Assembly: GCA_002773135.1 (NCBI GenBank) | Contig: PFCB01000021.1 | Coordinates: 961-39,246, forward strand | From: Candidatus Magasanikbacteria bacterium CG10_big_fil_rev_8_21_14_0_10_47_10 | GTDB lineage: Bacteria; Patescibacteriota; Patescibacteriia; Magasanikbacterales; UBA922 | Direction of reading: 5' to 3' | Length of the DNA: 38,286 bases | In this document: positions 16,063 to 33,099 of the stretch, piece after piece | Layout: every line of letters starts with the position of its first letter | Numbering within the stretch: the first letter of the stretch is position 1 | Notes under the pieces: generated by a model | Told to the model about the DNA's origin: nothing | The model's database searches: none | What the model saw: the letters and a program-made list of their open reading frames with translations, nothing else | Made by a program: the position numbers and the translations under genes

Positions 16063-16184
16063 ACGTGTTTGGATGTTTGCTTTTAATAATCGACCTTTCC
16101 TGTCCCGTCATCCTGCCAATGGCTGGTGTGTACGGGATTACCGCGACAACTTGATGAATAACTCAATTTGTTACGCGTGGCCAA

Positions 16185-16214
16185 AGTATACTGGAAGCCA
16201 AAGGAGCATGTCAA
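16185..16214 (-). promoter_or_regulatory. sigma70 promoter of the zinc-ribbon gene
   Basis: TTGACA-18-TATACT, implying a leader of about 115 nt. Confidence 0.6.
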
Positions 16215-16231
16215 TAGACTCTCAGTACGCC

Positions 16232-16639
16232 CTATGTATCCTTGCTGCCGGTACCGTCAAACTCACCTCCGGCAACACTCGCGACGGCTACAATCAAAAC
16301 CAGGGTCGCGTACAATTTCCAATCCGTATAGAGCGCGGCGAACTGATCCAATGGCTGCTTTGCTATGTACGCGCCCAATGCGGAAAGCCCATCCAAGATC
16401 AAGGATACAGCCACAATGATAACGCCAAATTGAAACCCACGCGCTGTGCTTGGCTGAAGTTTTTTAAAAAACCACTTTGAAAAAATCAAAACGAGCGGAA
16501 TGATACAAACCCAAAAAAATATATAGCTCTTCAAACTATTTTGATCTTCAAAATATGGAACAGCACGGGTTAACGCGTACAAAAGAAATGATGAAACATA
16601 CAGTAATATGCTCATCCAAATAGCTCTTTTATAGTTCAT
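16232..16639 (-). CDS. Hypothetical 4-TM membrane protein
   Basis: 135-aa ORF with four hydrophobic segments; 1 nt from the upstream gene. Confidence 0.7.
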   Translation of the reverse strand: MNYKRAIWMSILLYVSSFLLYALTRAVPYFEDQNSLKSYIFFWVCIIPLVLIFSKWFFKKLQPSTARGFQFGVIIVAVSLILDGLSALGAYIAKQPLDQFAALYTDWKLYATLVLIVAVASVAGGEFDGTGSKDT

Positions 16640-16640
16640 A

Positions 16641-16973
16641 TTATACGAGTGTTAACACCAAACCCAATATAAAGAGAATAAGAAAAACGAACAGCCAGCC
16701 AATGGTTGACCACATCATAACTGTCGCGGCCTTAAAATGATGATGAAGCAACTTTTTGAGCGGCTCAAAGAAAATCAGCCAACCACACACCGCAACGGAC
16801 AAAAAGATAAGGAAAAAATTAAATGTATACCGTATTACCTGACCAATTTGATCCTGAAACATGAATTCAATGTTAAGGATGATCAGGGAAAGAAACAGTA
16901 AATAAATAACAACGAGCACAGCATGAAGAAATCCATGCCAGAACGGGTTGCGGTAGTCGCGATTGAGCAGCAT
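16641..16973 (-). CDS. Hypothetical 3-TM membrane protein
   Basis: 110-aa ORF with three hydrophobic segments. Confidence 0.7.
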   Translation of the reverse strand: MLLNRDYRNPFWHGFLHAVLVVIYLLFLSLIILNIEFMFQDQIGQVIRYTFNFFLIFLSVAVCGWLIFFEPLKKLLHHHFKAATVMMWSTIGWLFVFLILFILGLVLTLV

Positions 16974-17117: not shown

Positions 17118-17885
17118 ATGCGAGTCGAGAACTTCGTGGGTAGGATATTCCTGCTCCGTCACGTCGACAGGGACAAGCTGAATGTGGATCCGGAGGTCCG
17201 CGAGCTGCCCACCGAGCTGGGCGAGATCCAGGCGTTCACCATGGGATCGATGCTACGCCGGCAGTTCCGGGCGCACTTCATGCGGCGGATGGCGTCGCCG
17301 GCCGGGCGCTCGTTGCACACCAACGAACTGCTGCACCGCGCCTCGCTGCCACTGGTGGCTAGCCGCGGCCAGGCCGGTGCGCAGACTCTGCAGAAGTTCC
17401 GTGATCTCAAGGAAGACCCGCGGGTCGATGAGGCGGTTCAGAAGGAGATCCACGAGCTTGGGATCCTGGGCCATGGGGGCGAGCACCTGATGCTCGCCAT
17501 GTTCACCAACCCCGAGACCTACCCGGACTCGCGGCTAGCCGAGTTCCTCACGGTCAAGGCCAGCGAGATGACCGTGGCGGTCAACAGCATCGTTGAGCAG
17601 ATGATGCTGGACGAGTACCGTGGCACGGACACACTGGTGGCCGGCCTGCACGGTGGCCAGCTGGACTTCCTGCACCACCACTTCACCGCGGAGATCTTCC
17701 AAGGCCAGCCCCAGCGCAGGACCACGAAGATCTTCCGCAAGGGAGAGGGCTTCATGCTCGAGGCCCTCGACCTCCACCCGGACCTGCCGGCCGACAAGGA
17801 GTGGCGGGTCGGCCGCGTGACGGAGCTCCGCTGGCCCCTGTGGCTGGAGGAGGTGTGCACCGAGGCGATGGGCGGCGGCTCCTGA
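17118..17885 (+). CDS. Histidine phosphatase superfamily-like protein (GC-rich gene)
   Basis: FLLRHVDR (RHG-like), ASPAGRSLHT (SPxxRxxxT) and LVAGLHGG motifs in the expected order; strong G/C third-position bias. Confidence 0.65.
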   Translation: MRVENFVGRIFLLRHVDRDKLNVDPEVRELPTELGEIQAFTMGSMLRRQFRAHFMRRMASPAGRSLHTNELLHRASLPLVASRGQAGAQTLQKFRDLKEDPRVDEAVQKEIHELGILGHGGEHLMLAMFTNPETYPDSRLAEFLTVKASEMTVAVNSIVEQMMLDEYRGTDTLVAGLHGGQLDFLHHHFTAEIFQGQPQRRTTKIFRKGEGFMLEALDLHPDLPADKEWRVGRVTELRWPLWLEEVCTEAMGGGS

Positions 17886-18654: not shown

Positions 18655-19599
18655 CTATTTACCCAAGGTGGTAATCGGCCTACTTTGGGTAATATAGAAT
18701 GTGTCCCCTTCCATGGCCCATTCAATATCGCAGGGAAATCCATAGTGGTCTTCTATTTTTTTGCACAGCTCTGAGAGCTCGATAATCTTTCTGCCTGAGA
18801 GCTTTTGCGCGGCACCACGTTCATGAAGCGCTTCCCATTCATTTGATTCTCCTTTTTTTACCAGCCGTTTGTGTTGCTCAGAGACATTCACATCCAAGAG
18901 CATCATTTCCTTTTTATCAATAATGTAATTATCGGGCGTGACCTGGCCACTGACAATTGCTTCGCCCAGTCCAAGCGCGGCTTCAATAATCATTTGATTG
19001 TAATCTTCTGTGACCGGATGCACAGTGAACGCCACGCCGGAAACATCTGACTGAACCATTTTTTGTACCACCACCGCCACAGACACATAGCTATCATGCA
19101 AATTCTTTTCAAATCGGTAAAAAATAGCGCGCGGCGTAAACAACGAACTCCAGCATTTTTTTACATTCTCAAGCAAACTTTCTTTAGTGGTATTTAAGAA
19201 GGTGTCCAACTCCCCTGCCCAGCTGGCAATTTCGCTGTCCTCTGCCGTGGCGCTGGAACGAACCGCGACATATTCCGCGCCAAGCTGATCAAAGGCTGCC
19301 ATAAGATCAATGGCGAGATCCTCAGGCATTTTGGTGTCGTGGATGACGTCCCGCAAAATGCTGCTCGCGTTTTCCACGGATTTCATGTCATCCTGATTCA
19401 CCCGCGCAATCTGTGATTCGATTTCTTGCTTAAGATTGGTTTCTTCAATAAATCGATCAAACGCGTCCGCAAGTAACACAAAGCCGGGCGGAACCTGAAT
19501 ACCGGCTTGCGTCATTTCTCCCAATGACGCGCCCTTGCCACCGGCAATGGCCACATCGGATTTATTAATTTGTTCAAAGGGTCGGATGTACATACTCAT
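18655..19599 (-). CDS. Stand-alone PEP synthase/PPDK-type N-terminal ATP-grasp (nucleotide-binding) protein
   Basis: GGKGASLGE, VPPGF, VAVRSSATAED, SWAG, VVVQKM, SGVAFT, GLGEAIVSG.VTPD, DIEWA, QSRPITT, then stop. No His domain and no pyruvate-binding barrel. Confidence 0.92.
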   Translation of the reverse strand: MSMYIRPFEQINKSDVAIAGGKGASLGEMTQAGIQVPPGFVLLADAFDRFIEETNLKQEIESQIARVNQDDMKSVENASSILRDVIHDTKMPEDLAIDLMAAFDQLGAEYVAVRSSATAEDSEIASWAGELDTFLNTTKESLLENVKKCWSSLFTPRAIFYRFEKNLHDSYVSVAVVVQKMVQSDVSGVAFTVHPVTEDYNQMIIEAALGLGEAIVSGQVTPDNYIIDKKEMMLLDVNVSEQHKRLVKKGESNEWEALHERGAAQKLSGRKIIELSELCKKIEDHYGFPCDIEWAMEGDTFYITQSRPITTLGK

Positions 19600-20978
19600 A
19601 TTTTTCTTACTATACCACTTTCACCGTCAACTTCCACAAGGTCGCCGTCTTTCAAAAGTGATGTAGCATTCCCTGCACCAATTATACACGGCTTCCCAAG
19701 TTCACGCGCTATAATAGCCGCGTGGCAGGTAATGCCGCCCTCGTCTGTGACAATTGCACATGCTTTTTTCATGACAGTCAAGAATTCAGGATGAGTCATG
19801 GTTGTCACCAACACATCGCCTTCCTTGAAACGACTAAATTCACCCCTATGGTAAACAATCGAAACCGGACCTATTGCACTTCCTGCGCTTGCTCCTTTCC
19901 CCACAATCACATTTCCTTCTTTTGGTTTGGGTAATCCAAATTCATCGGAAATATCTCTATCATACACATCCACATGCCCACCTTTCATCACAAAGGAAAA
20001 CATCTTTTGCCGACTATTTGCCACATCTGTCCACTTCTGATGGTCTTTTGTCTCAAGAAGTTCGACCAATTCTCTATCGATCAAATAATTGAGCTGTCTT
20101 GCCGTTAATTTTGTTCTCGACGCCATCTCGTGCCAAAAAGGCCGAAATGCAAAATAATATGGACGGCGATATCCGTCACGCGTTTCCTTTAGATACGCAA
20201 ACATGTGAGTGACCTCAACAAGATCGCGGAAGGACGGATCTTCAATTGATGACAAAAATTGATCATATACTCTGAGTTGATCCCCCTGCGCCTGTTCTAT
20301 GGCCGCTCGTTCACCGCGCGCATCTTCAATATGCTCCATTTCGTGTTTTACTTCATCGATTGTAAGCGGCGTGTCCACAAACTCATACATTGGCAGCCAT
20401 GCGTATTTATGTATATAGACTAGAAGGTCCTCGTCTGAAACGTGTCCGTCCACAACCATGTGAAGCAGCTCAAGCCGCGCCTGGGTTAATTTTGTCTGTC
20501 TGTATGGGGTTGATATAGATTGCAAAATCGCTTGTGCACCGCTATATTCTTTTTCAATTCTCTGCTCAACCATTTTTGTAGGTCCTTCCAGCGCCAAAAA
20601 TGCCAAAAACTGGAGTTGCCCAAAATCCGCAAGCTTATCTGAAAAAACATTCACAAAATCAATCAATTCACTATCAGTTTTTTCCTTCCAATCTTGCGCG
20701 GTTACTTTCAGCGCCCACTGCAAGTGATTATCAAGAGCGCGTTCATAGCCGGCGGCGTACGTTTTTCTGTCTTGCGCCAATACATCTGCGGTAAATATCT
20801 TCAACAACTCTTCAAATTGATCGCGCAAAAAATAGACCGCCTGCAAGCGCCCTTCCGGCACATACAGCTTGTCTGTCACAATGTTAAATGGCGACCCCAA
20901 CGTAAACGCGCGCAAGTATGACTGCGCGATAAATGGTGCATATGTTCGTGCCCAAAGTCGGGTCCATTTCTGTTTCAT
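19596..20978 (-). CDS. Phospho-His swivel-domain protein, paralog F (460 aa)
   Basis: C-terminal GDVLVT.MT.P, IVTDEGGITCHAAIIARELGKPCIIG, DGDLVEVDG; ATGA overlaps on both sides. Confidence 0.9.
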   Translation of the reverse strand: MKQKWTRLWARTYAPFIAQSYLRAFTLGSPFNIVTDKLYVPEGRLQAVYFLRDQFEELLKIFTADVLAQDRKTYAAGYERALDNHLQWALKVTAQDWKEKTDSELIDFVNVFSDKLADFGQLQFLAFLALEGPTKMVEQRIEKEYSGAQAILQSISTPYRQTKLTQARLELLHMVVDGHVSDEDLLVYIHKYAWLPMYEFVDTPLTIDEVKHEMEHIEDARGERAAIEQAQGDQLRVYDQFLSSIEDPSFRDLVEVTHMFAYLKETRDGYRRPYYFAFRPFWHEMASRTKLTARQLNYLIDRELVELLETKDHQKWTDVANSRQKMFSFVMKGGHVDVYDRDISDEFGLPKPKEGNVIVGKGASAGSAIGPVSIVYHRGEFSRFKEGDVLVTTMTHPEFLTVMKKACAIVTDEGGITCHAAIIARELGKPCIIGAGNATSLLKDGDLVEVDGESGIVRKI

Positions 20979-22402
20979 AGTTTTCTCACTATACCCCTAT
21001 TCGCATCGACTTCTACGGTGTCGCCGTCTTTCAGTGCTGTCGTCCCATTCCCAGTCGCGACTATACAGGGAATCCCCAGCTCGCGAGAAATAATAGCGGC
21101 ATGACAGGTCACGCTTCCTTCATCAGTCACAATGGCCGAAACCTTTCTTAAATATGGCACAAAATCCTGCCGTGTCATTGCAGTCACTAACACATCGCCT
21201 TTTTCTACTTTACCAAGATCTTTGTTTGTGAAGATAATTTTTACTTGCCCAGTTGCCGTTCCTTTTGATCCTGTTTTGCCTTTTACATCATGCGATCCGG
21301 TTTGCACTGCGCTGATTTCCTGCTTTGCTTTTTCTGTTGCTTGCTCACCCGAAAAAATATGATATTCATCTTCTTTTTGAATCAACAGGTATGCTTCTTC
21401 TCGCATTTTTATTTCTTCTGCATCAAATGCTTTACCGATTTGCAAGCAGGATGCGATTTCTGCGTTTGTCAGCAAAGCGATCTGTTCAACGGATAGCCCG
21501 ATTCGTTTACCAACCTCTGTATAAAACGTACGGAGTTGCAGATTCAACTTCTGCCGAATCATATCTCTGTAATCTCGCAAACATACGTTTTCTTTGAGGA
21601 ATGCGAGGAGTGCTTCCAGACGTTCATTTAAATTCGTTTGGTCTATAAAAGTCCGGTAGTGTTGTTTCGATTGTGCAAAACCCGCCTTAATTTTGTCCAA
21701 TTCTGTTTGCGGATCGTCTATCTGTTCCATTTCATCCAAAAAATGCTGCACCGAGTACGGCGCGTGATCAAAATCGAACAACGGAATGTGTTTATATTTG
21801 TCTGTATGCGCCACAATTCGCTGCCGCTTTTGCGTGTCATCCAATGAATCCCAATCTACTGCAACGGTAAGCAAGTCAATGCGTTCCTGTGTCACATCAT
21901 TTGGTTCAAGTGGCGATGAAAGTTGCAGCAACGCATCGCGCCGCTGATCCACATCGTTAATTACCTGTGTCAATTCGTTGTCTACCACTTCCGCCAACGG
22001 CGCACCAATGTTAAATACCGTCCACATGCGAACATAAAATTGTTCCACGTTTGGATGGACTATGTCTTCATACAAATTCAGCAATTCTTCATTTGTCAGT
22101 GAACCAAATTGCACGTCTGAAAATGCTCCTGTCATTTTTTCAAGAATGGATTCCATGACCGCTTGAGCATTAACATGAAAATTATTGAGAAACGTATTGT
22201 CTTCCAACTTCTGAAATAAACCTGCGACATATGCTTCATGTTGTTCCCTATCCACCCAATACTCTGTTTTCTTGTCGTCTTTATATACAAGAGTATTCAT
22301 CACAGACAGACCATATACCTCTTGCATGGCCTTTCCAAACCCAACATTCCAGGCTTGGGCTACCTGGACTGCCAGTCTGCGGGTAATGTACTTTTTCCAC
22401 AT
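20975..22402 (-). CDS. Phospho-His swivel-domain protein, paralog E (475 aa)
   Basis: IVTDEGSVTCHAAIISRELGIPCIV, DGDTVEVDA; helical N-terminal region. Confidence 0.9.
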   Translation of the reverse strand: MWKKYITRRLAVQVAQAWNVGFGKAMQEVYGLSVMNTLVYKDDKKTEYWVDREQHEAYVAGLFQKLEDNTFLNNFHVNAQAVMESILEKMTGAFSDVQFGSLTNEELLNLYEDIVHPNVEQFYVRMWTVFNIGAPLAEVVDNELTQVINDVDQRRDALLQLSSPLEPNDVTQERIDLLTVAVDWDSLDDTQKRQRIVAHTDKYKHIPLFDFDHAPYSVQHFLDEMEQIDDPQTELDKIKAGFAQSKQHYRTFIDQTNLNERLEALLAFLKENVCLRDYRDMIRQKLNLQLRTFYTEVGKRIGLSVEQIALLTNAEIASCLQIGKAFDAEEIKMREEAYLLIQKEDEYHIFSGEQATEKAKQEISAVQTGSHDVKGKTGSKGTATGQVKIIFTNKDLGKVEKGDVLVTAMTRQDFVPYLRKVSAIVTDEGSVTCHAAIISRELGIPCIVATGNGTTALKDGDTVEVDANRGIVRKL

Positions 22403-22441
22403 AGGTAAAACTACGCTAATTTAAGCCTAAATCCATATACC

Positions 22442-22487
22442 AGTATAGCCACAAGGGCTTGACAAAAGCAAGGTTTTGTGCTATTGT
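22442..22487. promoter_or_regulatory. Overlapping divergent sigma70 promoters
   Basis: Plus strand: TTGACA(22459)-17-TATTGT with TGn extension. Minus strand: TTGCTT-18-TATACT(22442-22447) ahead of paralog E. Confidence 0.5.
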
Positions 22488-22623
22488 ATGCAGTCAATTC
22501 AGTGTAATAATTCTGCTAAAACAAGCCACTTTTCGGTTCACCGTATCAGAGAATATTCCACAAGAGTCTTCTCTAATGCCGCGAACTGAATGCGGCAGAG
22601 ACCCCACCCAACAGGAGGTGAAC

Positions 22624-23271
22624 GTGGGGACCGACAAGACCGTGACCGTCGTCGTGATGCGCCACCCGCAGAAGACGGGACGTTCGGCCGACGCCATCAC
22701 CGCCTTCGGCGCCCAGCAGGCGTTCGCGGCGGCCCAGGCCCTGGCCGAGCGCTTCGACAACATCGGCATGCTGTTCTTCAGCGGGGCGAAGCGCACGCTG
22801 CAGACGGCCCAGATCATCGAGGCGGCGCTCCTGCTCAACGCGGAGCCGCCGATCACGATGCGCGGCTTCCACTTCGATGTCGTGTTCGACCAGTGCTTCC
22901 CCGGCGAGGCCGGGCGCTCCTACTTCTTCGAGCAGCTCGATGCGCTGAAGAGCGAGCACCACGACGCCCCCAAGCTCAGCCACGCGCTGGCGCTCAAGAA
23001 CGAGCTGGGCGTGTACGCGCGCATGGGGCGCGAAGCCGTGACCACGGCCCTCGCCGAGGTCGCGGACATCCTCGACCAGGAGAAGTGCGACACCGGCCTG
23101 GTGGTCTCGCACTCGCCGTGGACCGAGCTCGCCTCCCTCCACCCGGAGGAGACGCCGTTCGGCCTCGGCGAGGCCGACGCCGTCGCCTACACGCTCGAGG
23201 CCGACGCCGACGGATGGTACATCGCGTCCAGCGAGCTCATCCGCGCGCCGCTCGAGGGCAAGCCCCTCTAG
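22624..23271 (+). CDS. Histidine phosphatase superfamily-like protein (very GC-rich gene inside the array)
   Basis: AGGAGG then GTG at 22624; VVMRHPQK, ITAFGAQQA, FSGAKRTLQTA, LVVSHSP motifs; nearly all third positions G/C. Confidence 0.72.
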   Translation: MGTDKTVTVVVMRHPQKTGRSADAITAFGAQQAFAAAQALAERFDNIGMLFFSGAKRTLQTAQIIEAALLLNAEPPITMRGFHFDVVFDQCFPGEAGRSYFFEQLDALKSEHHDAPKLSHALALKNELGVYARMGREAVTTALAEVADILDQEKCDTGLVVSHSPWTELASLHPEETPFGLGEADAVAYTLEADADGWYIASSELIRAPLEGKPL

Positions 23272-23442
23272 AGCGCGCGCACCTGTCCCGGCGACCGTCG
23301 GGACAGAAGACAACCCCAACGACACCGACACTGTCGGTCCGCGCTTCACGCGCTGACCGGCGAACCACAACCATTGCGGCCGTGAGCACCTTGCTCGCGG
23401 CCCCAACTGATAAAGTTATAACTCGGTTGTAGCATTATCTCA

Positions 23443-23484
23443 AAAAAGATCCCCCATTGCTCGCGAGCGTCGGGGGATCTTTTT
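23443..23484. terminator. Bidirectional Rho-independent terminator
   Basis: AAAAAGATCCCCC...GGGGGATCTTTTT between convergent genes. Confidence 0.85.
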
Positions 23485-24541
23485 ATTTCACTTTTTTTAC
23501 TATGCCATTATCCGCGTCAACTTCCACCATATCCCCGTCCTTGAACACCCTAGTAGCAATTTTGGTGCCAATGACACACGGCTTCTGCATCTCCCTGGCA
23601 ACAATGGCGGCGTGACACAAAATGCCACCGCCATCTGTCACAAAGGCGGATGCTTTTTTCATCAACGGTAAAAATTCCGGGCGAGTCATGCCGGATACCA
23701 AAATATCGCCCTCTCCAAACGCGGTATCCGGAGTCGGATCAAATACGACACGTACCTTTCCGCGCACAACGCCCTTGTACGCTACCTGACCTTTCAGCTG
23801 TTCCGGATCATCCTTTCCCAAAATTATTTGTTCCACATTTTTTGCATCCTCATTCAAAAACACCTCCGTGCTCTTTTCGTCAAAAACCAACGCACTCAGC
23901 CCATATCTATTCTGCAATATTTCTTCATCCGGAAGCTTGCCACCCTTTAAATAAGCTACAAATTCTTCAGATATTGTCGCCAGTATAGACGCAGGCATGT
24001 ATCCTTCTTTTTCACCAACGATCTTTGCCAATGTCTCTAAATAGTCCTCATATCTTCTGTATACAGGCTCGGCATACAATCGTGCATCTTCCAACGGCTC
24101 CATATATTTGGTTAATTCTGATTCCGTCATAACGTCCGGCAAATTCTTGACAAATACATGCATCGGATAATATGAATAAAACCTATCTACAAAATTTTGA
24201 AACTGATCCACTGTAATATCTTTCCCTTCATCTCTGTCAATAAGGGATAAAAAGGCGTCGGTTTCATCTTTTAATGCGCTACAAATTTCTGTTATTGAAA
24301 AATCTCCACTTTGAATATGTTCTTTTACGTCATTGGCAAACTTCCGCCTATCTGTTTCTCTTATACATGTCGTTGTTAATCCATCTCTAAAAAGAAACAC
24401 GGCTCGCGACACAAATCGCTCTATCATCTGAGCATATGGGCGACGCATATACGACTGTCCAGCATAGGAGTCACTCAGCAAACTCCATCGGCCTGCCCAG
24501 TACACCATCCAATCATCTGCGCGTAATTCTTCTATAGACAT
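23483..24541 (-). CDS. Phospho-His swivel-domain protein, paralog D (352 aa, short form)
   Basis: FVTDGGGILCHAAIVAREMQKPCVIGTKIAT, DGDMVEVDA. Confidence 0.9.
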   Translation of the reverse strand: MSIEELRADDWMVYWAGRWSLLSDSYAGQSYMRRPYAQMIERFVSRAVFLFRDGLTTTCIRETDRRKFANDVKEHIQSGDFSITEICSALKDETDAFLSLIDRDEGKDITVDQFQNFVDRFYSYYPMHVFVKNLPDVMTESELTKYMEPLEDARLYAEPVYRRYEDYLETLAKIVGEKEGYMPASILATISEEFVAYLKGGKLPDEEILQNRYGLSALVFDEKSTEVFLNEDAKNVEQIILGKDDPEQLKGQVAYKGVVRGKVRVVFDPTPDTAFGEGDILVSGMTRPEFLPLMKKASAFVTDGGGILCHAAIVAREMQKPCVIGTKIATRVFKDGDMVEVDADNGIVKKVK

Positions 24542-24547
24542 ATTTTT

Positions 24548-26008
24548 TTATATTATTTTCTTTACAACTCCATTATCCGCGTCCACTTCAATCCTGTCCC
24601 CATCCTTCAAAAACTTGGTCGCTTTTTTTACGCCAATAACACAGGGTATGCCAAGCTCACGCGCGACAATAGCCGCGTGGCATGTGATACCACCTATCTC
24701 CGCGACAATGGCACGGGCTTTTTTCATGGCCGGGACAAAACGCGGGTCTGTCATATGTGATACCAAGATGGCGTCCTGCTCCATTGTTCCAATATCTTTT
24801 GGATCGACGATGATACAAACTTCTCCGCGTGCACTCCCGGGTGACCCACAATCGCCGGACAATTCATCCGGCAGCGTATCAAAGCCGGTAATATCTTCCA
24901 GGGCGGCAAGATACTCTCTTGCGATAGGCCCAGGTTCCTCCTGCATTGTACCCTCTTTAATAAAAATTACATCCTGTGTCCATCTCGCGTTCAATTGGTT
25001 TTCATCAAACCGGCCATGGAGTAACAAATCTTCCATCTCTGGTGGCAGGACCGCCTGCAACTGTCTTACACTTAAATGTTTACGCCGACCGATTTCTCTA
25101 AAATACGGCTCCATTGACCAATAATATTGATGTGATACATCCACGCGATATGCTTTCAGGCGAATGATATCTTCAACAAAACCGGCAAATGCCAATGTTT
25201 TTTCTGAAAAAGAATACTCTTTCTTCACTTCCCGTTTCTTTGCCTCGACATCCAGCGCGTACGCGTCTTCAGATTTCACGAACGAACGCGATCTCTCTCT
25301 ATCGCCCTCCAACAATTCCAAACGATCTTGATAATACGATATATCGTACGGCGGACCTGCCCAACCATAGCCCATCCATTGGTATTTTTTCCAATGATCT
25401 TCAACAGACGCTGACGAGTCCCCAGTCGCGATCTTCAAAAGATCCTGTTCTTCCGCTTGCATAAAACTGTATCGCGGTGATGTTGTCAGCACCATTAACA
25501 CAGACTGAACACGGCTTTGTGGAACACCATCTTCCAGCAACGAATTTTTTAGCAATGGCATGAGCAGCGAATTTTCATGTTCCAAATAATTCACGGCTTG
25601 ACCCAGAACCCACAGTGGCTCATGAATAGCGTACGTTTTTTTATACCACTCAAACAGTCCCCTATCCGTTAGTGCCGCAACCGTCTGCTCGCGCATACGC
25701 GAACTTGCCTGAAGCAACTCATCCGCGTATGTATCAATTCTTTGCAAAATGTTTCTCATTATCGAGGGATCTTCTTTGATCCTTTCAAGCAATCGACGTC
25801 CTGCCTGCATAAATTCATTGCTTTCAAAATACATATGCAGCTCACCGTCTACAAACAAAAAAAGCACATTCCGCACAATTTCACCGACTTCAGGCTCTAA
25901 TTTTTCGGCAAAGGCAATAATTGGCGACCATACAAACCATGGCGCGCAATCAGGCACGTCTTCAAACAAGGCCCAGGCATGCTTGTCTAGCCAGTGTGTA
26001 TCTATCAT
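24548..26008 (-). CDS. Phospho-His swivel-domain protein, paralog C (486 aa)
   Basis: IVAEIGGITCHAAIVARELGIPCVIG, DGDRIEVDA. Confidence 0.9.
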   Translation of the reverse strand: MIDTHWLDKHAWALFEDVPDCAPWFVWSPIIAFAEKLEPEVGEIVRNVLFLFVDGELHMYFESNEFMQAGRRLLERIKEDPSIMRNILQRIDTYADELLQASSRMREQTVAALTDRGLFEWYKKTYAIHEPLWVLGQAVNYLEHENSLLMPLLKNSLLEDGVPQSRVQSVLMVLTTSPRYSFMQAEEQDLLKIATGDSSASVEDHWKKYQWMGYGWAGPPYDISYYQDRLELLEGDRERSRSFVKSEDAYALDVEAKKREVKKEYSFSEKTLAFAGFVEDIIRLKAYRVDVSHQYYWSMEPYFREIGRRKHLSVRQLQAVLPPEMEDLLLHGRFDENQLNARWTQDVIFIKEGTMQEEPGPIAREYLAALEDITGFDTLPDELSGDCGSPGSARGEVCIIVDPKDIGTMEQDAILVSHMTDPRFVPAMKKARAIVAEIGGITCHAAIVARELGIPCVIGVKKATKFLKDGDRIEVDADNGVVKKII

Positions 26009-27450
26009 AGTTTCCTCACTATACCATTATCCGCGTCAACTTCCACAAGGTCGCCGTCTTTCAAAACCTTGGTCGCGATCTTTGTGCCGATGACGCAGGG
26101 CGTACGCAATTCACGCGCAACGATAGCCGCGTGGCAGGTTAGCCCACCTTGGTTCGTCACAAAGGCAGCGGCTTTTTTCATAATGGGCAATAAAGTCGGA
26201 TCTGTCACATTTGAGATCAATACGTCCCCATCTTTGAATTTCTCCATTTCCTTTGCCATATTCACAATCTTTGCCGGACCTGTCACCTTTCCTGGATATG
26301 CCACTTCTCCTTTCAGCTCATTTGTCTGTTCAACGGCGGGTAGCTGCTGAACCATAGGCGCAGCAAAAGAGCGAGCCTGGTCACCAATCAGCAGATAAAA
26401 ATCTTCTCCATCAAAATATTGGATCGAGTATTTTCTAATTTCATTTATTCGCTCAATATCAAATTCCCCTTTTCGCAGCATTTCAATGATCCAGTCAGGA
26501 TAGAGCGCATACAACTGGCCCAATGAAAGGAAATGATCGCGCGCGATTTTTTGCAATATGGGTTGACTTGCTTCATAACTCAAAAACAACGCGTCCATTC
26601 GATGTGCTTTGATATATAAGAGCTCTTCTAATTTTCGGAACAATCGGACAATATCGGCAGGCATCTTCGTTTCACTGATCCACCGCTTTTTTTCACTCGT
26701 CAACGCTTCATCTTGCGCAATGAAATTCTCAAAAAGTTGCTTCGCGTTCCCTTCGTTATATAAACCGGCATGGATTTGTTCAAAATACTCACGAGAGAGA
26801 GATGGCCCGGTCCATCCGAAATGCAGCCACGAATATGTTTCCCAGTGCTGTGTGAGCTTCTCTCCTGGATCCTTTTCTTGCGCTAAACGCAACATGTCAC
26901 GCTCCTCTCGCTGCGCCATTGAAAGTTCACGCGGTGTGGCGAGTGTCTGAAACGCCTCCGTCACCCGTTCATCCGGAAGGCCTTGCTGCTTGAGCCAGTT
27001 TTCAAGGTAATCTTTAAGAAAGGTATTTTCCAACTCCAAAAGGTTTGGGACTTGCCCCAGGGAAAAAACCGGATGATGTTTTTTATGATATGCATCTAAA
27101 TATGAAATTAACTCTTCGGCATCACACTGAGAAAAATCAACCTTTTTCAACTCCTGCGAGTAGGCAGCCAGGTCATCTGCAGCCTTGCGCAAATCTCTAT
27201 TCACACTGGTGAGCTTCTCCGGATCAGCAAGGACATCATTCAGATAGCGCTCACCAAGCTCGGTCCACTCAGAACGAGACATGTAGATACGCTGGACATT
27301 GCCTTCCAATTCACCGACCACCTGTGACAGTCCATAGCCGAGACGCTCATGGATAGTACGCGCCACCCCAGTCATATAGCAGCTTTGGAACCAGGCAACA
27401 TCAAACCATTCTCCAAACATGAATGGGTTTTGCATTTGTAGTGGCTTCAT
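26005..27450 (-). CDS. Phospho-His swivel-domain protein, paralog B (481 aa)
   Basis: FVTNQGGLTCHAAIVARELRTPCVIGTKIAT, DGDLVEVDA. Confidence 0.9.
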   Translation of the reverse strand: MKPLQMQNPFMFGEWFDVAWFQSCYMTGVARTIHERLGYGLSQVVGELEGNVQRIYMSRSEWTELGERYLNDVLADPEKLTSVNRDLRKAADDLAAYSQELKKVDFSQCDAEELISYLDAYHKKHHPVFSLGQVPNLLELENTFLKDYLENWLKQQGLPDERVTEAFQTLATPRELSMAQREERDMLRLAQEKDPGEKLTQHWETYSWLHFGWTGPSLSREYFEQIHAGLYNEGNAKQLFENFIAQDEALTSEKKRWISETKMPADIVRLFRKLEELLYIKAHRMDALFLSYEASQPILQKIARDHFLSLGQLYALYPDWIIEMLRKGEFDIERINEIRKYSIQYFDGEDFYLLIGDQARSFAAPMVQQLPAVEQTNELKGEVAYPGKVTGPAKIVNMAKEMEKFKDGDVLISNVTDPTLLPIMKKAAAFVTNQGGLTCHAAIVARELRTPCVIGTKIATKVLKDGDLVEVDADNGIVRKL

Positions 27451-27458
27451 AACGATAT

Positions 27459-27608
27459 TTACTTAATAATCATGAGTGTATCCTTTAGAGATACGCCAAC
27501 ATATTCCTTCATTTCTTTACACACACTCTCAAGCGACAAATAGTTCGGAAAAGGACTCATGCGCTGTCGCTGACTCAAAAACGAATAATCTGCAGTATTC
27601 AGATGCAT
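27459..27608 (-). pseudogene. Probable N-terminal remnant of a seventh array paralog (49 codons)
   Basis: Manual translation: MHLNTADYSFLSQRQRMSPFPNYLSLESVCKEMKEYVGVSLKDTLMIIK*. It fills the A-B gap and resembles the paralog N-termini. Confidence 0.55.
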
Positions 27609-27618
27609 AACGATCTGA

Positions 27619-29085
27619 TTATATTTTTTTCACGATCCCAGCGTCCGCGTCCACCTCCACCATATCGCCGTCTTTCAATACCTTGGTCGCGATCTTTGTG
27701 CCGATGACGCAGGGGATGCCAAGCTCACGCGACACTATTGCCGCATGAGACGTGACACCGCCTTGGTTGGTGACAATGGCACTTGCTTTTTTCATGGCCG
27801 GGACAATATCAGGATCAGTGGCAATGGAGACCAGCACATCGCCCGTCTCCATTTTATCCATATCGTCGGCGCGGATGATAATCTTCACCTTGCCGGTCGC
27901 CTGTCCTACGCAACCGGTCTCACCCTGTAATTCCTGTGTATCAGTATCAATATCTTCTTCCAGGCTGGCGATCAGATCGCGTGCGCTTTCTCCAGTGAAC
28001 ACATGCTCATGATCCCGTTCACTGTAATACACGCATTCCTTTGCCCGCTCACGCAGTATGTTCTCATCAAACCGGTCATGCATAATCAGATGCTCCATTT
28101 CTGAATACATCACAAAACGTATTTGCTTCTCTGTCAAAAACTTTCGCTTTGCGATTTCACGCAAGATTGGAGACATGTGATGCACTGCCAACAGCTGCGC
28201 GTACCGCCGATATATCTTGGTCACCATAAAATCGCCATAGGCCTGCAAAATGGTTCGCCATTCGCCGGCAATCCCAAGCTCACCCATGAGCGCGTCCTTT
28301 TCTTGTTTGCCACGCTCAAAATCGTCATTCAATTTCCGAAGAAGTTCCCCGGCCGTCTTTTGTGAAGATAACGCCTCTTGAATTTGTCTTTTGTAGTCGT
28401 CTACTGTGTACTCACCGCTGACCCACAAATGCTTGGTGTAATAATATTTTTGCCAATGCGCTTTGAGATCTTCTTCAATATCTTCGCCCTGTTCCATTTT
28501 CTGCGCAATGCGAAGCAAGTCTTCTTGTTCAATCAAAATCAGAGATTTTTTTGTTGGCTGTGTCAATGTGACAAAGGTTTGATTCAAAGTCTCCTTGGGA
28601 ACGCCAATGCCGGTCAGATAGTCTTTCACCTTCTTTGTCAGATTCCCATGAAACATATCGCAACAGACCGGCATCCAGCCCCATGTGTAGTATTCCTGAT
28701 GAATGCGGTAATGCGTATCGTAAATCTCCCAAAGCTGCCGGTCAGAAAGCGTGTGCAGATCTGTCTGAGGAATAGAGTCACTGTACTCCCGGAGTTTATC
28801 CGCATGCGCCACAATTTGATCGTTCGTTTCTGAGGCAAATTCGGGCTCGCCAATAAACTTGTTCGCTAAAAATTCACCCACGTCATATGAATCATCTTTC
28901 CCAAAATAAAACCAGAGATTGTAATCCTGATACCGACAAAGAATTTTCTTGTAGGCCTTGCCAACATGCGTATCAAACGTGTCGACAAAACCTTTCATCC
29001 AAATTGTGGAGAAAAAAAGATCGCAGTTCGGAATATGTTCCGCCAGCATCCAGGGGTCGTTGTCGTGAAGGTGTTTTGGTTGCAT
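27619..29085 (-). CDS. Phospho-His swivel-domain protein, paralog A (488 aa)
   Basis: IVTNQGGVTSHAAIVSRELGIPCVIGTKIAT, DGDMVEVDA. Start at ATG 29085 (track start 29115). Confidence 0.9.
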   Translation of the reverse strand: MQPKHLHDNDPWMLAEHIPNCDLFFSTIWMKGFVDTFDTHVGKAYKKILCRYQDYNLWFYFGKDDSYDVGEFLANKFIGEPEFASETNDQIVAHADKLREYSDSIPQTDLHTLSDRQLWEIYDTHYRIHQEYYTWGWMPVCCDMFHGNLTKKVKDYLTGIGVPKETLNQTFVTLTQPTKKSLILIEQEDLLRIAQKMEQGEDIEEDLKAHWQKYYYTKHLWVSGEYTVDDYKRQIQEALSSQKTAGELLRKLNDDFERGKQEKDALMGELGIAGEWRTILQAYGDFMVTKIYRRYAQLLAVHHMSPILREIAKRKFLTEKQIRFVMYSEMEHLIMHDRFDENILRERAKECVYYSERDHEHVFTGESARDLIASLEEDIDTDTQELQGETGCVGQATGKVKIIIRADDMDKMETGDVLVSIATDPDIVPAMKKASAIVTNQGGVTSHAAIVSRELGIPCVIGTKIATKVLKDGDMVEVDADAGIVKKI

Positions 29086-29133
29086 AACAAAAGCTGTTCG
29101 CTCAGCTTTGCACATTTTGGCCGTTTTGTCAAC

Positions 29134-31440
29134 CTACTGCAGCGACTGTATTTTATCCTTTACATCCTCGTTAAACGGATTGAGGGACTGCACGCGTCGA
29201 AAGTATGTAAGCGCTTCGGCTCTGTTGCCCAAACGCTCGTATAGCAGCCCCAAACTATATAAGGCATTTGCATAGGTGGGGTCTTTTTCAATGGCAGACA
29301 GCCACAACTGCTCGGCGCGAGTAATATCATCTCCCTTATTTCTGTTAAAGACCAGCCGCCCCTGCTCGTAGAGAGCGCGTGCCGGCTCAATATTTTTGTC
29401 CACCATTTGCTGATACACGGCCACTGCTTTATCAATTTGGTTATGGCGTTCATACAGAGCGGCCAAACTCTGATAAGCCGCAATAAAATCCGCCCGAAGC
29501 GCGATAGCGCCATTGTACGATTCTGCGGCTTGGATGACATCATCGGAATAGTCTTTCACCAACCCCATCTGCCAGTGAAGGCGTGGATTATACGGATCAA
29601 GCGTCACGGCATGTTCCAGCGCTTCTGCCGCGCGTGCGTTTGCCTGCTTTGCGTTTTCATCATCCACCAATCCGCGCGCATTCATATACAGGATTGCCAA
29701 AGTCTGCCACGCATCCTTGCTTCCCGGGTATTCCTTTGCCGCCTTCAGCGCGTGATCCGTGGCCGCGGCCAGGGCAGAACCCAATCTTTCCGGATCTGAA
29801 GGATTGAGCGATTGCAGTCGCGCCTGTTCCAAATACCCCTGCGCCAAAGACAGCCGATATTCCAAATTTTTTGGCGCAAATAAAAGAGCCTCTTCTATTT
29901 TTTCCTGCGCCGCTGCCGGCGACACTGCTGCTGCCTGCGCGTACGCGCGTTCCGCCCGCACCATGTTTGACACAGCCAGACCGCCCATGCCAATACCAAT
30001 CGTAAGCAATACAAGAATCACGGTAATGATAACGGCTGAGTACGAGGTAATACGAATATCTTTGACAACAGACCGCAGCTGCTTTGGTGCAAGACTAGCA
30101 AGTCCAACGACTGTCATGGCCGTAAGAAACCACCATAACCACCAAAGCGCCGGACCATACGTATAGACCGCCATGCCGAGTGTGGCCACCACCCATGCCA
30201 CCCCAACCACAATGCCATCAACCTGAAAATGATTTCTGCGAGATGTGTCACGGTACAATTTTTCACGGGAAAACGCATTATATAGCTTTGTTTCTGACGA
30301 CAATTCCAAAAATGCATGCGTGGCGATGATAAACACAAGAACAATGCACAGCAAAAAAGACAATGAAAACAAAAATCCAAACTCCGCAGCAAATGAAAAA
30401 AATGTGTTATATGGTCGAATAAACGCAGGCGCTTGTGTATCTATTGGACCGGCAAATTGCACCGGCCGATACAACGCAAATGCCGCGTCAAATGTTCCCG
30501 GCCCCACGCCCAAAAGAAACGATTCCGTCCCAGAACCAAGTGTACTTTTCGCAATAAACCAGCTCGCGTTTGGAGAAAGTGTAATCTCGGGAGCCAGTTT
30601 CACTTTCACGCCGGCGGGAATACCCTGAACCGCAAAAAATATGGATGCAACGGCAAAAAGGCTCAAGATGGCAATAACCCACAAACGCATCCGAGGCGCC
30701 TGAAACCACCCAACCAATACCAACAGCACCAACCCCCCCGCAAATAAGGCAATCGCAAACGCAAATCCAACGCGTACCAGCACAGCGGCCGATAAAAGAA
30801 ACGCTAGGGCCGGCAGCAGCTGCATCCACCAATGCTTTTCTTTGTGCATGAGCATGCCCGCGCCAACGAGTCCAACCAATGCTGTGAACATGGCCAGTTC
30901 ACTTGCGCGTAATCCAATCAAATTCGATGGGGGCAAACCAAAAGGAAGCGAAGCAAGAAACCCCTGTGTCACGTCAAACTGCCCAAACAAAAAAACAAGG
31001 GCACTCAACCCAGTGGCCGCGAACACCACTGTCCACAGCATGTGCCATTGTCGTACTGATACTGTTTCCTGAATTGTTATCCACGCAAAAACAATGAGAG
31101 CCAAAACAAAAAAAACAGACAGACCACCGGTACTGGGACGGCCAACAAAGCTCTGATAGGGCAATAAAGAAAGAAATCCTGATACCAGTGTGGCAGCTAC
31201 CACGCAAATAAAAGCAATATCAAGCAAGCTACTCCGAATACATACGCTCCGATCAAGCACGATGCGAGCAAGCCAAAAAAACATCAGCGCCGCGCTGGCG
31301 ATGATCACCCAAAGCATTTTTGCGTCGACCACCGGCGCGCGCAGGCCTGTCAAATAAATCAGTGGCAACCCTGTTGTTGCCACCAATAAAAGTGTGAACG
31401 GCAATTTTTGAATATAAAACGTATACCAGGGTTGCTTCAT
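29134..31440 (-). CDS. Polytopic membrane protein (O-antigen ligase-like) with C-terminal TPR repeats
   Basis: About 12 or more TM segments, LLGVGPGTF and PYNTF..FAAEFG (Wzy_C-like), followed by TPR helices (e.g. ANALYSLGLLYERLG). Confidence 0.8.
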   Translation of the reverse strand: MKQPWYTFYIQKLPFTLLLVATTGLPLIYLTGLRAPVVDAKMLWVIIASAALMFFWLARIVLDRSVCIRSSLLDIAFICVVAATLVSGFLSLLPYQSFVGRPSTGGLSVFFVLALIVFAWITIQETVSVRQWHMLWTVVFAATGLSALVFLFGQFDVTQGFLASLPFGLPPSNLIGLRASELAMFTALVGLVGAGMLMHKEKHWWMQLLPALAFLLSAAVLVRVGFAFAIALFAGGLVLLVLVGWFQAPRMRLWVIAILSLFAVASIFFAVQGIPAGVKVKLAPEITLSPNASWFIAKSTLGSGTESFLLGVGPGTFDAAFALYRPVQFAGPIDTQAPAFIRPYNTFFSFAAEFGFLFSLSFLLCIVLVFIIATHAFLELSSETKLYNAFSREKLYRDTSRRNHFQVDGIVVGVAWVVATLGMAVYTYGPALWWLWWFLTAMTVVGLASLAPKQLRSVVKDIRITSYSAVIITVILVLLTIGIGMGGLAVSNMVRAERAYAQAAAVSPAAAQEKIEEALLFAPKNLEYRLSLAQGYLEQARLQSLNPSDPERLGSALAAATDHALKAAKEYPGSKDAWQTLAILYMNARGLVDDENAKQANARAAEALEHAVTLDPYNPRLHWQMGLVKDYSDDVIQAAESYNGAIALRADFIAAYQSLAALYERHNQIDKAVAVYQQMVDKNIEPARALYEQGRLVFNRNKGDDITRAEQLWLSAIEKDPTYANALYSLGLLYERLGNRAEALTYFRRVQSLNPFNEDVKDKIQSLQ

Positions 31441-31446
31441 ACGCGA

Positions 31447-33099
31447 CTATTTGTCGAACGGATCAGTAAAATCGATATTATCCGACGTATCGACAGATTT
31501 TTGAAAATTCTGCGGCGGGGCTTCTGCGTTTGAATTATTCGTTTTCCCGCCACGCCGCCTTTTTCTCTTTCTCTTTTTGGGCTGTCCGGATGATTCCGGA
31601 GAACCGGGCGTGCTTTCTGTTTCAGGTTCACGAGCTGCCGGCTTCAAGGCCACCAATGACACAGTTTTTTGCTCCACTCTTTCCACTTTTTTAGGCGCAA
31701 TTGATGTGCGCGATCCAATAGGGTTTTTTTCTTTCACCGGACGTTCGTCCTCGCCATCCTCGTCATCACCGGATTCTTCGGCAGGGGCAAGGCCACTCCA
31801 TCGCATGATTTTATCCTCGATATCAGATCGACGTAGCGCGTAGCGTTCTCTGGATACGCGGATGACCTTTTCCATTGATTCCGTAGGCGAGCCCAACGGC
31901 GGCAACGTCAGCGAACTAAACGGCAATGATGCCACACCATCAATCATCAATTTCAAAAGTATTTGAAATTTCGATAAGTTCACAATATCTTCTTCAATAA
32001 AGGTTGGCGCAAATTCCTTCGCAAGCATTTCCGCGTCCCCGGCTCCGACTCGAAAAGCCACGATGGTGCCAACGTTTCCAAATACCGCGTCCGCGACCAC
32101 TTCATCCAACTGCGCGACATATTGATGGGCCATGACCAAACTCAAACGGTATTTCCTGGCCTCCGATAGGATATTTGCAAAACTTGGTGTCGCAAAATTT
32201 TGAAATTCATCAACGTACAAAAAGAAATCTTTCCGCTCCGCCTCCGGCGTGTCCACGCGTTCCATGGCGGAAAGCTGGATTTTGGTAATAAGCATTCCTC
32301 CCAACAGCCGACTATTATCCTCGCCAATACGGCCTTTGGACAAGTTCATAATAATAATTTTCCGGCTGTCCATGGCTTCTCGAACATCCACGGTTGATTT
32401 CACCTGCGCGACCATATTTCGAATAACATTCGCGGACAAAAACTGACCAATCTTGTTTTGAATCGGCGCGACAGCTTCCTTTTGATACCGCGGTTCATAA
32501 TTTTCAAATTCATTATGCCAAAATCCCTTAATAACCGGATCTTTGACCGCCCGAACAACTTTTTTTCTAAATGGCTTGTCGGAAAGCAAACGGTTTATAC
32601 CCAACAATGTTGACCCGGGATATTCCAATAAGGCCAAAAGAGTATTATTCAAAATATATTCCATGCGGCTGCTCCACACATCCGGCCATATCTTTTTGAA
32701 GGTGGCCATAAGTCCTGCCGCGACCAAATGCTTTTGTTCATCATTTTGAACTTCCAAAATATTAAACCCAATCGGATAATCCGTATCCGACGGATTGATG
32801 TATACCACATCATTCATTCGCCAGGTTGGAATAAAGTTAATAATCTTTTCTGCAAAGTCACCATGCGGATCTACCAACCCAACGCCATGCCCCGCATAGA
32901 TATCATGAAGCATCATGTTTTCCATCATCGTCGATTTTCCCATGCCGGTCTTCCCAATAATGTACATGTGCCTACGCCTGTCATCGAGCTTTATGCCAAA
33001 ACGCCGCGGCTGATTGCGGAACGATGTTTGGGCGAACAGACAAATGTCCTGATCTTCTGGTTTTTCCGCGCCCGCTGGGCGCAAATATGGAGCTGGCAC
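31447..33099 (-). CDS. VirD4/TraG/HerA-like P-loop ATPase
   Basis: RRHMYIIGKTGMGKS (Walker A), DPHGD, LYVDEFQNF (Walker B), SEARKY. Start uncertain (GTG 33099 or track start 33135); TGnTATAAT upstream at about 33159-33167. Confidence 0.85.
   Translation of the reverse strand: MPAPYLRPAGAEKPEDQDICLFAQTSFRNQPRRFGIKLDDRRRHMYIIGKTGMGKSTMMENMMLHDIYAGHGVGLVDPHGDFAEKIINFIPTWRMNDVVYINPSDTDYPIGFNILEVQNDEQKHLVAAGLMATFKKIWPDVWSSRMEYILNNTLLALLEYPGSTLLGINRLLSDKPFRKKVVRAVKDPVIKGFWHNEFENYEPRYQKEAVAPIQNKIGQFLSANVIRNMVAQVKSTVDVREAMDSRKIIIMNLSKGRIGEDNSRLLGGMLITKIQLSAMERVDTPEAERKDFFLYVDEFQNFATPSFANILSEARKYRLSLVMAHQYVAQLDEVVADAVFGNVGTIVAFRVGAGDAEMLAKEFAPTFIEEDIVNLSKFQILLKLMIDGVASLPFSSLTLPPLGSPTESMEKVIRVSRERYALRRSDIEDKIMRWSGLAPAEESGDDEDGEDERPVKEKNPIGSRTSIAPKKVERVEQKTVSLVALKPAAREPETESTPGSPESSGQPKKRKRKRRRGGKTNNSNAEAPPQNFQKSVDTSDNIDFTDPFDK

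Follow-up and report, generated by a model that had tools for sequence, protein, structure and literature searches.

We analysed a stretch of 38,286 nucleotides (nt) from the small genome of the groundwater bacterium Candidatus Magasanikbacteria bacterium CG10_big_fil_rev_8_21_14_0_10_47_10 (the window), in which an array of seven genes on the minus strand (18655-29115) encodes six paralogous proteins with a C-terminal histidine swivel domain (modules) and, as its last member, a lone ATP-grasp protein. We consider it likely that this locus constitutes a split small-molecule dikinase of the type of rifampin phosphotransferase (RPH) and of the two-component enzyme HpeHI, in which a single ATP-grasp protein is shared by the six modules like a hub by its spokes. 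This reading is carried by the domain content of the proteins, the fold of the modules, their intact histidine, the gene layout, the one-to-many ratio of the two gene types in many genomes and the occurrence of natural fusions. A split RPH-like dikinase as such is already known, but the multiplication into hub and spokes, its spread among Patescibacteria and the multi-module fusions appear to be new. Throughout the text, G1-G6 denote the modules of the window, three-digit numbers (e.g. G010) denote genomes and the letter L denotes fetched loci.

Domain architecture of the array proteins

The open reading frame (ORF) listing yielded six modules of 352-498 amino acids (aa), which are followed by the ATP-grasp gene of 314 aa (Table 1). 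A preliminary description of this DNA had given module lengths of 352-488 aa. The lower bound of this range was reproduced, but the longest ORF of G1 comprises 498 aa and the smaller value fits a later start of this gene. In Pfam searches, the PEP-utilizers domain PF00391 occupied the very C-terminal end of each of the six modules (E 1e-24 to 2e-27). The co-oriented genes do therefore each end in an intact domain of this family, and the six histidine motifs were read as originally given. The same scan matched no family on the N-terminal 250-390 aa of the six modules, and the PEP-utilizers_C barrel (PF02896) was found on none of the seven proteins nor elsewhere in the window, so that the reported lack of a pyruvate-binding barrel holds. 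The ATP-grasp protein carried PF01326 (PPDK_N) and no second domain. Since this domain fills residues 18-313 of the 314 aa and the chain ends with ...QSRPITTLGK, the last gene does encode a lone ATP-grasp. Four-base overlaps, which had been noted as ATGA, join the genes at three of the six junctions (G2/G3, G5/G6, G6/ATP-grasp), and the remaining gaps measure 168, 6 and 1080 nt.

The genome (1.04 Mb, 36 contigs, 98.9% complete) devotes 0.9% of its length to the seven array genes. Its remainder contains one more swivel domain, one more PPDK_N domain and the sole PF02896 domain, and all three reside in a single frame of 1052 aa on contig C22, which is an ordinary full-length enzyme resembling phosphoenolpyruvate (PEP) synthase. 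The PPDK_N inventory of the genome is thus limited to the lone ATP-grasp protein and the C22 gene, and six modules face one lone ATP-grasp protein in the window as well as in the whole genome.

The lone ATP-grasp protein scored 336.7 bits as PEP-synthase type versus 71.9 bits for pyruvate phosphate dikinase (PPDK), and the NCBIfam models for PEP synthase and RPH aligned to it over their first ~315-340 model positions only. It shared 50-68% of its residues with 15 lone ATP-grasp proteins of other genomes across the phylum and 55-59% with fused ones, whereas its identity to the ATP-grasp domains of PEP synthases (G000, G152, G010), including that of its own genome, was 33-38%. Lone and fused forms grouped as one clade, separate from PEP synthase, in a tree of their ATP-grasp domains. 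Because this clade and these identities set it off from PEP synthase, the lone protein belongs to a lineage that is dedicated and conserved and is no broken PEP synthase. Water-dikinase chemistry releases AMP and inorganic phosphate (Pi) and is not readily reversed. Since the ATP-grasp protein scores as PEP-synthase type and this chemistry is hard to reverse, the suggestion that the system runs in reverse to regenerate ATP, the weakest part of the preliminary description, is disfavoured.

The six modules combine a variable with a conserved portion. Where BLAST aligned them, the N-terminal domains (N-domains) were 19-27% identical (G1/G2/G3, 22-27%, with G2 versus G1 and G3 at 22-25%; G5/G6, 26%; G3 links to G5 and G6), and G4 aligned with none of the others. 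The corresponding value for the C-terminal 105 aa was 46-70%, which bears out the strong divergence described for the N-terminal 250-380 aa.

A profile (A2) that combined G3 with 48 homologues from databases and four paralogues of the window matched the RPH chains 5hv2, 5fbs and 5hv1 with an E-value of 4e-31, its positions 173-494 corresponding to chain residues 517-878. For the AlphaFold2 model of G3 (pLDDT 93.7, pTM 0.90), a Foldseek comparison of the kind proposed in the preliminary description returned RPH as best matches (E 2e-13 to 1e-12), and VIA-align superimposed residues 8-486 of this model on residues 326-867 of RPH 5fbu (Z 19.4, root mean square deviation (rmsd) 5.2 Å over 422 residues). 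Similarly, residues 3-352 of the G4 model (pLDDT 90.6) were placed on residues 317-867 of the same structure (Z 19.8, rmsd 4.7 Å over 289 residues). Structure models cover G3 and G4, and the other four modules are tied to them by sequence; in G1, residues 244-495 were reached by the NCBIfam RPH/PRK06241 models. The modules are 14-19% identical to RPH, which was the sole solved structure that aligned over the whole module. Judged by profile, Foldseek and VIA-align, the N-domains are predicted to be diverged acceptor-binding domains of the RPH type, which are mostly helical and do not have the nucleotide-binding fold that had been named as the finding that would speak against a split dikinase. 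As probable homologues of the rifampin-binding domain of RPH, they mark the locus as a split, RPH-like dikinase.

The histidine, which corresponds to the catalytic one in the conserved loop of two-component dikinases, is invariant in all six window modules, and it was kept in 102 of 102 swivel domains across the compared loci. Five of the six window modules and most of these 102 swivels carry a threonine two residues before the histidine (PEP-synthase type, e.g. GGITCH). In PEP synthase and PPDK, this threonine is phosphorylated by the PF03618 regulator, a kinase/phosphatase. The genome from which the window was taken gave no match to PF03618. A hidden Markov model (HMM) alignment at ~15% identity paired a nearly invariant lysine (K285 in G3) with Arg666 of RPH and placed R288 of G3 one position from RPH Lys670. 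In RPH, the exchanges Arg666Ala and Glu667Ala are reported to abolish rifampin phosphorylation, and Arg666-Glu667 together with Lys670 position the phosphate for the second transfer (PMC4844700).

NCBIfam models of proteins of 568-633 aa (PRK08296 group) matched only the swivel part of the modules. PF02350 (UDP-GlcNAc 2-epimerase), with which some homologues carried precomputed labels, was considered as a clue to the substrate and was dropped, since these labels were sub-threshold and overlapped the swivel and the proteins in question were tandem double modules.

One ATP-grasp gene and many modules across genomes

Both domains were counted in the window genome and in 40 relatives, 41 genomes in total. 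PF00391 was present in 31 of them, and ten had four or more matches (23, 11, 9, 8, 7, 7, 5, 5, 4 and 4). A complete lone ATP-grasp frame (321-398 aa) was detected in 12 of the 41 genomes, the window's included, and a partial one in three more; none had two. Where a lone ATP-grasp gene was present, the number of swivel matches outside full-length PEP-synthase frames ranged from 1 (G011) to 22 (G010), so that the copy-number survey proposed earlier gave never more than one lone ATP-grasp per genome versus 1-22 modules. Five distant genomes of the same phylum followed this pattern with exactly one lone ATP-grasp gene each (frames 315-321 aa) and 7-11 swivels outside PEP synthase.

The N-domain itself was followed with a further profile (A4). 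It was present in 43 of 301 genomes of the phylum (36 of 248 genera), with up to six candidates scored per genome, so that copy numbers from this survey are lower bounds. Against 1.84 billion representatives of 50%-identity clusters, A4 retrieved 6531 proteins at E <= 1e-3, of which 4857 were left at <= 1e-10 and 1675 at <= 1e-30. Among the best 150 matches, 27 contained the N-domain in two to four stretches and were up to 2648 aa long; two of the best representatives in this library, with 2309 and 2648 aa, contained four such stretches each. The homologues were typically named 'PEP-utilizing enzyme [Patescibacteria group bacterium]', a few came from Woesearchaeota and Nanoarchaeota, and the Atlas lists N-domain clusters of the candidate phyla radiation (CPR) and of DPANN.

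Gene layouts were compared in 26 loci from other genomes, the ORFs of which were scanned with purpose-built HMMs. In L015, which stems from another family of the phylum, six tandem modules are followed by a swivel-only ORF of 104 aa and then by the ATP-grasp gene in last position, which is essentially the design of the window. The ATP-grasp gene lies amid eight modules in L019, precedes two modules in L026, follows seven modules in L018 and L020 and is overlapped by a module of 367 aa in L013; in these five loci and in L025, ATP-grasp and modules are co-oriented. Swivel-only ORFs of 104-106 aa were seen directly upstream of the lone ATP-grasp gene in three genomes (Table 1), and the Atlas also lists N-domain clusters without a swivel. 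Thus, three-piece versions of the system may exist.

Several ORFs unite the two components in one chain. L014 contains a fusion of 832 aa between ATP-grasp and a single module, and in L005 one ORF of 1130 aa consists of PPDK_N and two swivels. L022 harbours a single ORF of 3181 aa, free of stop codons, in which PPDK_N is followed by seven swivel-bearing modules. The ATP-grasp domains of L005 and L022 fall inside the clade of the lone proteins, apart from PEP synthase. Evolution has repeatedly tied a lone-type ATP-grasp covalently to several modules at once.

Prediction of the complex between the ATP-grasp protein (alignment A3) and G3 (alignment A2) in the presence of ATP gave a score of 0.74 versus 0.00 for the best of three controls. 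Of 80 solved complexes 58 attained this mark, as did 2 of 110 mismatched pairs. The runs agreed in at least 96% of the contacts, the pLDDT of the partners was at least 85, and the predicted interface brings residues 231-273 of the ATP-grasp protein together with residues 304-340 of G3. Complex prediction for the paralogues had been proposed in the preliminary description; it was run for G3, where the outcome was positive. Conservation of the interface was set aside as support for docking, being weak on the G3 side and opposite on the ATP-grasp side.

Taken together, the gene ratios, the fusions with two or seven modules and the complex prediction with its controls agree with the central proposal of the preliminary description, and one ATP-grasp 'charger' probably serves all six specificity subunits.

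A number of observations weigh against this proposal. The complex prediction covers G3 alone among the six modules, and its passing score may reflect the likeness to RPH, because RPH has been solved as a single chain. On G3, the predicted docking surface exceeds the remainder of the N-domain in conservation by a small margin, which 3-9% of random sets attain as well (7% with BLOSUM and 3% with the majority fraction on 53 sequences, 9% on the six paralogues), and the docking side of the ATP-grasp protein is less conserved than average (96% of random draws). In the HMM alignment at ~15% identity, Glu667 of RPH lacks a conserved acidic counterpart. The swivels, mostly with the threonine of the PEP-synthase type, are probably not close kin of HpeH and are more like PEP synthase than RPH, the closest match of the swivel part of A2 alone being PEP synthase 8a8e (E 3e-49). 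The largest arrays of G010, G171 and G301 lie on contigs other than that of the ATP-grasp gene, and L011 (at least 12 modules), L016 and L017 (eight each) had no ATP-grasp gene on the fetched stretch and carried it on another contig of the genome. For the arrays of G010, G171 and G301, sharing would have to take place in trans, as judged from the gene counts alone. Finally, HpeH alone was reported to transfer phosphate from 4-phosphoacetophenone to acetovanillone (PMC12167813) and because of this movement of phosphate between two substrates, ATP-independent activity of the modules is conceivable.

The last of these points, the PEP-synthase-like swivels, the arrays remote from the ATP-grasp gene and the full-length C22 gene with its PPDK_N, swivel and PEP-utilizers_C domains would all suit a different scenario, in which the modules work without the lone ATP-grasp protein. 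They would then exchange phosphoryl groups via the swivel histidine or be charged by the PEP-synthase-like enzyme or PEP, and the ATP-grasp protein would serve a neighbour at most. We regard this scenario as improbable, for G137 (98% complete) has eight swivel matches (seven single modules and an ORF of 915 aa with two N-domains and one swivel) but no PPDK_N other than the lone ATP-grasp, and G024 and G025 have one PPDK_N match each, in a frame of the lone size. Moreover, single ORFs fuse one ATP-grasp to two or seven modules, the lone and fused ATP-grasp domains form a clade of their own, and in many loci the genes have overlapping ends or a common orientation.

Even with a working ATP-grasp protein, it might be that only one module, the short G4 type or the overlapping G6, is its kinase partner and that the others, instead of being enzymes with substrates of their own, act as ligand sensors or regulators via phosphorylation of their swivels, as in relays of the nitrogen phosphotransferase type. 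Modules of 350-375 aa do recur as immediate neighbours of ATP-grasp in L013, L014, L019 and L025, a similar one is found near it in L002, and the L005 fusion has one of this size as its first module. In addition, the swivel-only ORFs beside ATP-grasp (L002, L009, L015) look like phospho-carriers. This scenario appears very improbable to us, since the histidine is kept in every swivel compared, the basic residue aligned with RPH Arg666 is kept in the modules, and the long modules retain the full fold of the RPH substrate domain and are themselves fused to ATP-grasp in L005 and L022. Furthermore, neither a DNA-binding nor an output domain turned up in the Pfam scan of the six modules of the window. 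Thus, a hub shared by all modules remains the preferred reading.

Module subfamilies, candidate acceptors and genomic surroundings

To judge how distinct the six modules are, we inspected a FastTree phylogeny of 82 single modules with SH-like supports. Five of the six window modules adjoined a module of another genome and none of these five adjoined a window paralogue (Table 1); G2 joined the pair formed by G3 (support 0.942). Among themselves, the window paralogues reached at most 35% full-length identity, and G4 matched them over the swivel domain of 104 aa only. These data suggest that the six modules represent subfamilies of old age that have been maintained separately, and transfer of arrays between lineages is also possible. 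If they are old and separately conserved, the six modules most likely phosphorylate six different acceptors.

As to the class of these acceptors, the modules may form a resistance panel, each inactivating another antibiotic or xenobiotic as RPH does with rifamycins instead of acting on metabolites that the cell makes or scavenges. This idea concerns the substrates and not the mechanism. It draws on the alignment along the entire module, which RPH alone among solved structures provided, and on the rph-like hits reported in a survey of CPR genomes (PMC8651080), but we consider it rather unlikely. The NCBIfam equivalog model for RPH (NF041857) scored the modules with 59-79 bits and the ATP-grasp protein with 291.6 bits, far under the cut-off of 999 bits, and sequence identity to RPH is low. 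The 6531 representative clusters and the conservation of subfamilies across classes fit a housekeeping role at least as well, and neither a resistance context nor aromatic-catabolism genes were seen in the window, the gene content of which is housekeeping (MurG, FtsW, AlaRS, MnmA, RpoA, S4).

The metabolism of the host organisms is thought to depend on scavenging. More tentatively, we propose that Patescibacteria and, to judge from database names, DPANN archaea as well may possess a combinatorial phosphorylation platform, in which one conserved charger and up to ~20 interchangeable modules, free, in tandem or concatenated (to 3181 aa), would be a main way for these reduced cells to trap and activate scavenged small molecules. 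Identification of the acceptors would close an evident blank in CPR physiology, and it would provide enzymology and engineering with a natural, modular kinase scaffold in which specificity subunits can be exchanged on one charger.

The gap of 1080 nt between G4 and G5 holds a gene on the opposite strand that the preliminary description had missed. It encodes a protein of the histidine-phosphatase superfamily (His_Phos_1, 24.8 bits versus a cut-off of 21.7), and its likely start is the GTG at 22624, which follows AGGAGG. Its G+C content is 70% (97% at third codon positions) versus 43% in the neighbours G4 and G5. The insert carries the best promoter-like site of the region. With its own sequence as query it was not found in the 40 relatives, and the big database contained four non-self homologues (38-45% identity). 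An assembly chimera was rejected as origin of this GC-rich insert, since one Logan contig of 6436 nt with even depth spans 19628-26063, i.e. the insert and both flanks, with zero differences; the run concerned may be the source sample. Short parts of the array are also present in three further groundwater runs. Within 22510-23502, some depth was seen in X2, X3 and X4, and one contig of X4 (208 nt) lies at 23169-23376. Because of the spanning contig and the parts in other groundwater runs, the insert looks like a real, foreign acquisition.

Several genes recur around the arrays, none of which names a pathway among the compared loci. An ATPase resembling TrwB/VirD4/HerA lies upstream of modules or ATP-grasp in 5 of 27 loci, of which L018 belongs to a distant family. 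Between this ATPase and G1, the window encodes a tetratricopeptide repeat (TPR) protein of 768 aa. Hydrolases of the haloacid dehalogenase (HAD) family, which are possible phosphatases, flank the arrays in three loci. A small DUF5674 ORF recurs in four loci (L004, L016, L017, L021) and a Carb_kinase gene (NAD(P)H-hydrate dehydratase) in three. Several sizeable ORFs of the window, one of 756 aa, had no Pfam match at E <= 0.001. Shuffled sequences had 18.6 +/- 4.6 promoter-like and 14.2 +/- 4.1 terminator-like sites versus 26 and 18 observed; these sites did not define transcription units.

Table 1. Coordinates of the array genes, of genes around them and of related features in other loci. Positions refer to the window unless a locus is named. 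The last column gives the nearest orthologue in the module tree with its identity and SH-like support.
Feature	Coordinates	Strand	Characteristics	Nearest orthologue
G1, module 1 (498 aa)	27619..29115	-	Predicted helical RPH-like substrate-binding domain and C-terminal swivel GGVTSH; PF00391 423-493, E 1.1e-25	G152, 50%, 0.987
G2, module 2 (481 aa)	26005..27450	-	Swivel GGLTCH; PF00391 405-476, E 1.1e-24; 4-nt overlap with G3	
G3, module 3 (486 aa)	24548..26008	-	Swivel GGITCH; PF00391 410-480	G083, 43%, 0.992
G4, short module (352 aa)	23483..24541	-	Swivel GGILCH; PF00391 276-346; minimal version of the module fold	G105, 55%, 1.0
His_Phos_1 gene	22624..23271 (longest ORF from 22459)	+	PF00300, E 1.9e-5; in the G4-G5 gap	
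G5, module 5 (475 aa)	20975..22402	-	Swivel GSVTCH; PF00391 400-470; 4-nt overlap with G6	G152, 52%, 1.0
G6, module 6 (460 aa)	19596..20978	-	Swivel GGITCH; PF00391 384-455, E 2.3e-27; 4-nt overlap with the ATP-grasp gene	G010, 28%, 0.874
Lone ATP-grasp subunit (314 aa)	18655..19599	-	Last gene of the array; PF01326 PPDK_N 18-313, E 5.2e-97	
TrwB/VirD4/HerA-like ATPase	31447-33135	-		
TrwB/VirD4/HerA-like ATPase, other loci	L004 242-2119; L007 1720-3435; L012 3-1256; L018 3-2027			
TPR protein (768 aa)	29134-31440		Between the TrwB/VirD4-like ATPase and G1	
ORF without Pfam match	2509-4779	-		
ORF without Pfam match	17118-17885	+		
ORF without Pfam match	16007-16973			
Fusion ORF (3181 aa)	L022 2802-12347	-	PPDK_N and seven swivel-bearing modules	
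Swivel-only ORFs (104-106 aa)	L015 4623-4937; L002 5800-6120; L009 514-834		Directly upstream of the lone ATP-grasp gene	
HAD-family hydrolases	L012 8925-10136; L015 15025-15636; L025 2811-3416		Flanking the arrays	

Comparison with known systems

Recognition of two-component dikinases is recent and has been confined to 1:1 pairs acting on phenolics. PpsAB (phenylphosphate synthase), CreHI and HpeHI are the characterised examples (PMC12167813; Dexter et al., 2025). The statement that such a split is known from phenylphosphate synthase was therefore correct, but this enzyme is not the sole case, since CreHI and HpeHI are likewise two-component systems. According to this report, HpeI is a stand-alone ATP-grasp protein and HpeH combines RPH-like substrate-binding and swivel domains, with the catalytic histidine near the C-terminus in the loop motif T/S-x-x-G-G-x-x-x-H. 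For the HpeHI family, it is described that ATP pyrophosphorylates the histidine via its beta-phosphate, that hydrolysis removes the gamma-phosphate and that the remaining phosphate is passed to the acceptor; the complex of the two proteins is transient (PMC12167813). By analogy with RPH and HpeHI, we infer phosphotransfer by a similar cycle for the window locus. A module would dock transiently on the ATP-grasp protein, its swivel histidine would attack the beta-phosphate of the bound ATP, the gamma-phosphate would be lost as Pi with release of AMP, and the swivel would then return to its own helical domain and deliver the phosphate to the acceptor in that domain.

The window pair shares with HpeHI, CreHI and PpsAB, as far as these are described, the separate ATP-grasp protein and a partner made of an RPH-like domain and a C-terminal histidine swivel, and a plausible interface was predicted for it. 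However, these systems have one H subunit of ~600-640 aa (HpeH, 71 kDa), whereas the window encodes six H-type genes of 352-498 aa per ATP-grasp gene. HpeH, CreH and PpsA are reported to be ~45% pairwise identical and to use phenolic substrates (PMC12167813), and the described systems have methionine at the position of the regulatory threonine of PEP synthase. In contrast, five of the six window modules have threonine there, their swivel is nearest to PEP synthase, and the hosts are Patescibacteria of ~1 Mb with no aromatic-catabolism genes in the window. The window locus and its relatives thus suggest a second design, in which a shared and strongly conserved ATP-binding hub is set against a multiplied and diverged acceptor half (N-domains 14-27% identical within one genome), and the number of modules can reach 22 in a relative of 1.4 Mb.

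One-to-many arrays, their spread among Patescibacteria and multi-module fusions were not found in the papers searched on dikinases, phosphohistidine and Patescibacteria, although the supplementary tables of the CPR survey (PMC8651080) may list such genes. This accords with the earlier remark that no characterised one-to-many version is known, the characterised split dikinases being 1:1 pairs. MarK (PMC12624787) was rejected as a relative, since it is an unrelated kinase fold that makes ADP.

RPH (5FBS, 5FBT, 5FBU, 5HV1; PMC4844700) resembles the window proteins in the fold of its acceptor-binding and swivel domains (Z 19-20) and in the type of its ATP-grasp domain, and its Arg666 is aligned with a conserved basic residue of the modules. 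It is, however, one chain of ~865 aa with a single acceptor domain, whereas the domains of the window system are split over genes, are 14-19% identical to it and do not conserve Glu667. Like HpeH, RPH has methionine two residues before the histidine, where most modules have threonine. PEP synthase and PPDK have the PF01326 ATP-grasp and the PF00391 swivel in common with the array proteins, but their swivel is central and followed by the PF02896 TIM barrel, whereas the swivel of the modules is C-terminal and PF02896 is missing.

In overall design, an analogy is offered by the sugar phosphotransferase system (PTS), in which the general components Enzyme I and HPr feed many sugar-specific Enzymes II. 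Here as there, one general energy-coupling component would charge many specificity components via phosphohistidine, and the swivel of Enzyme I has the same fold as that of the modules (Z 15-16, VIA-align). The PTS uses PEP as donor and its specificity parts are unrelated membrane transporters, whereas the window system would use ATP and carries the histidine on each specificity subunit. If the platform proposed above exists, it would represent an ATP-driven, cytoplasmic counterpart of the PTS in design, built from RPH-like parts.

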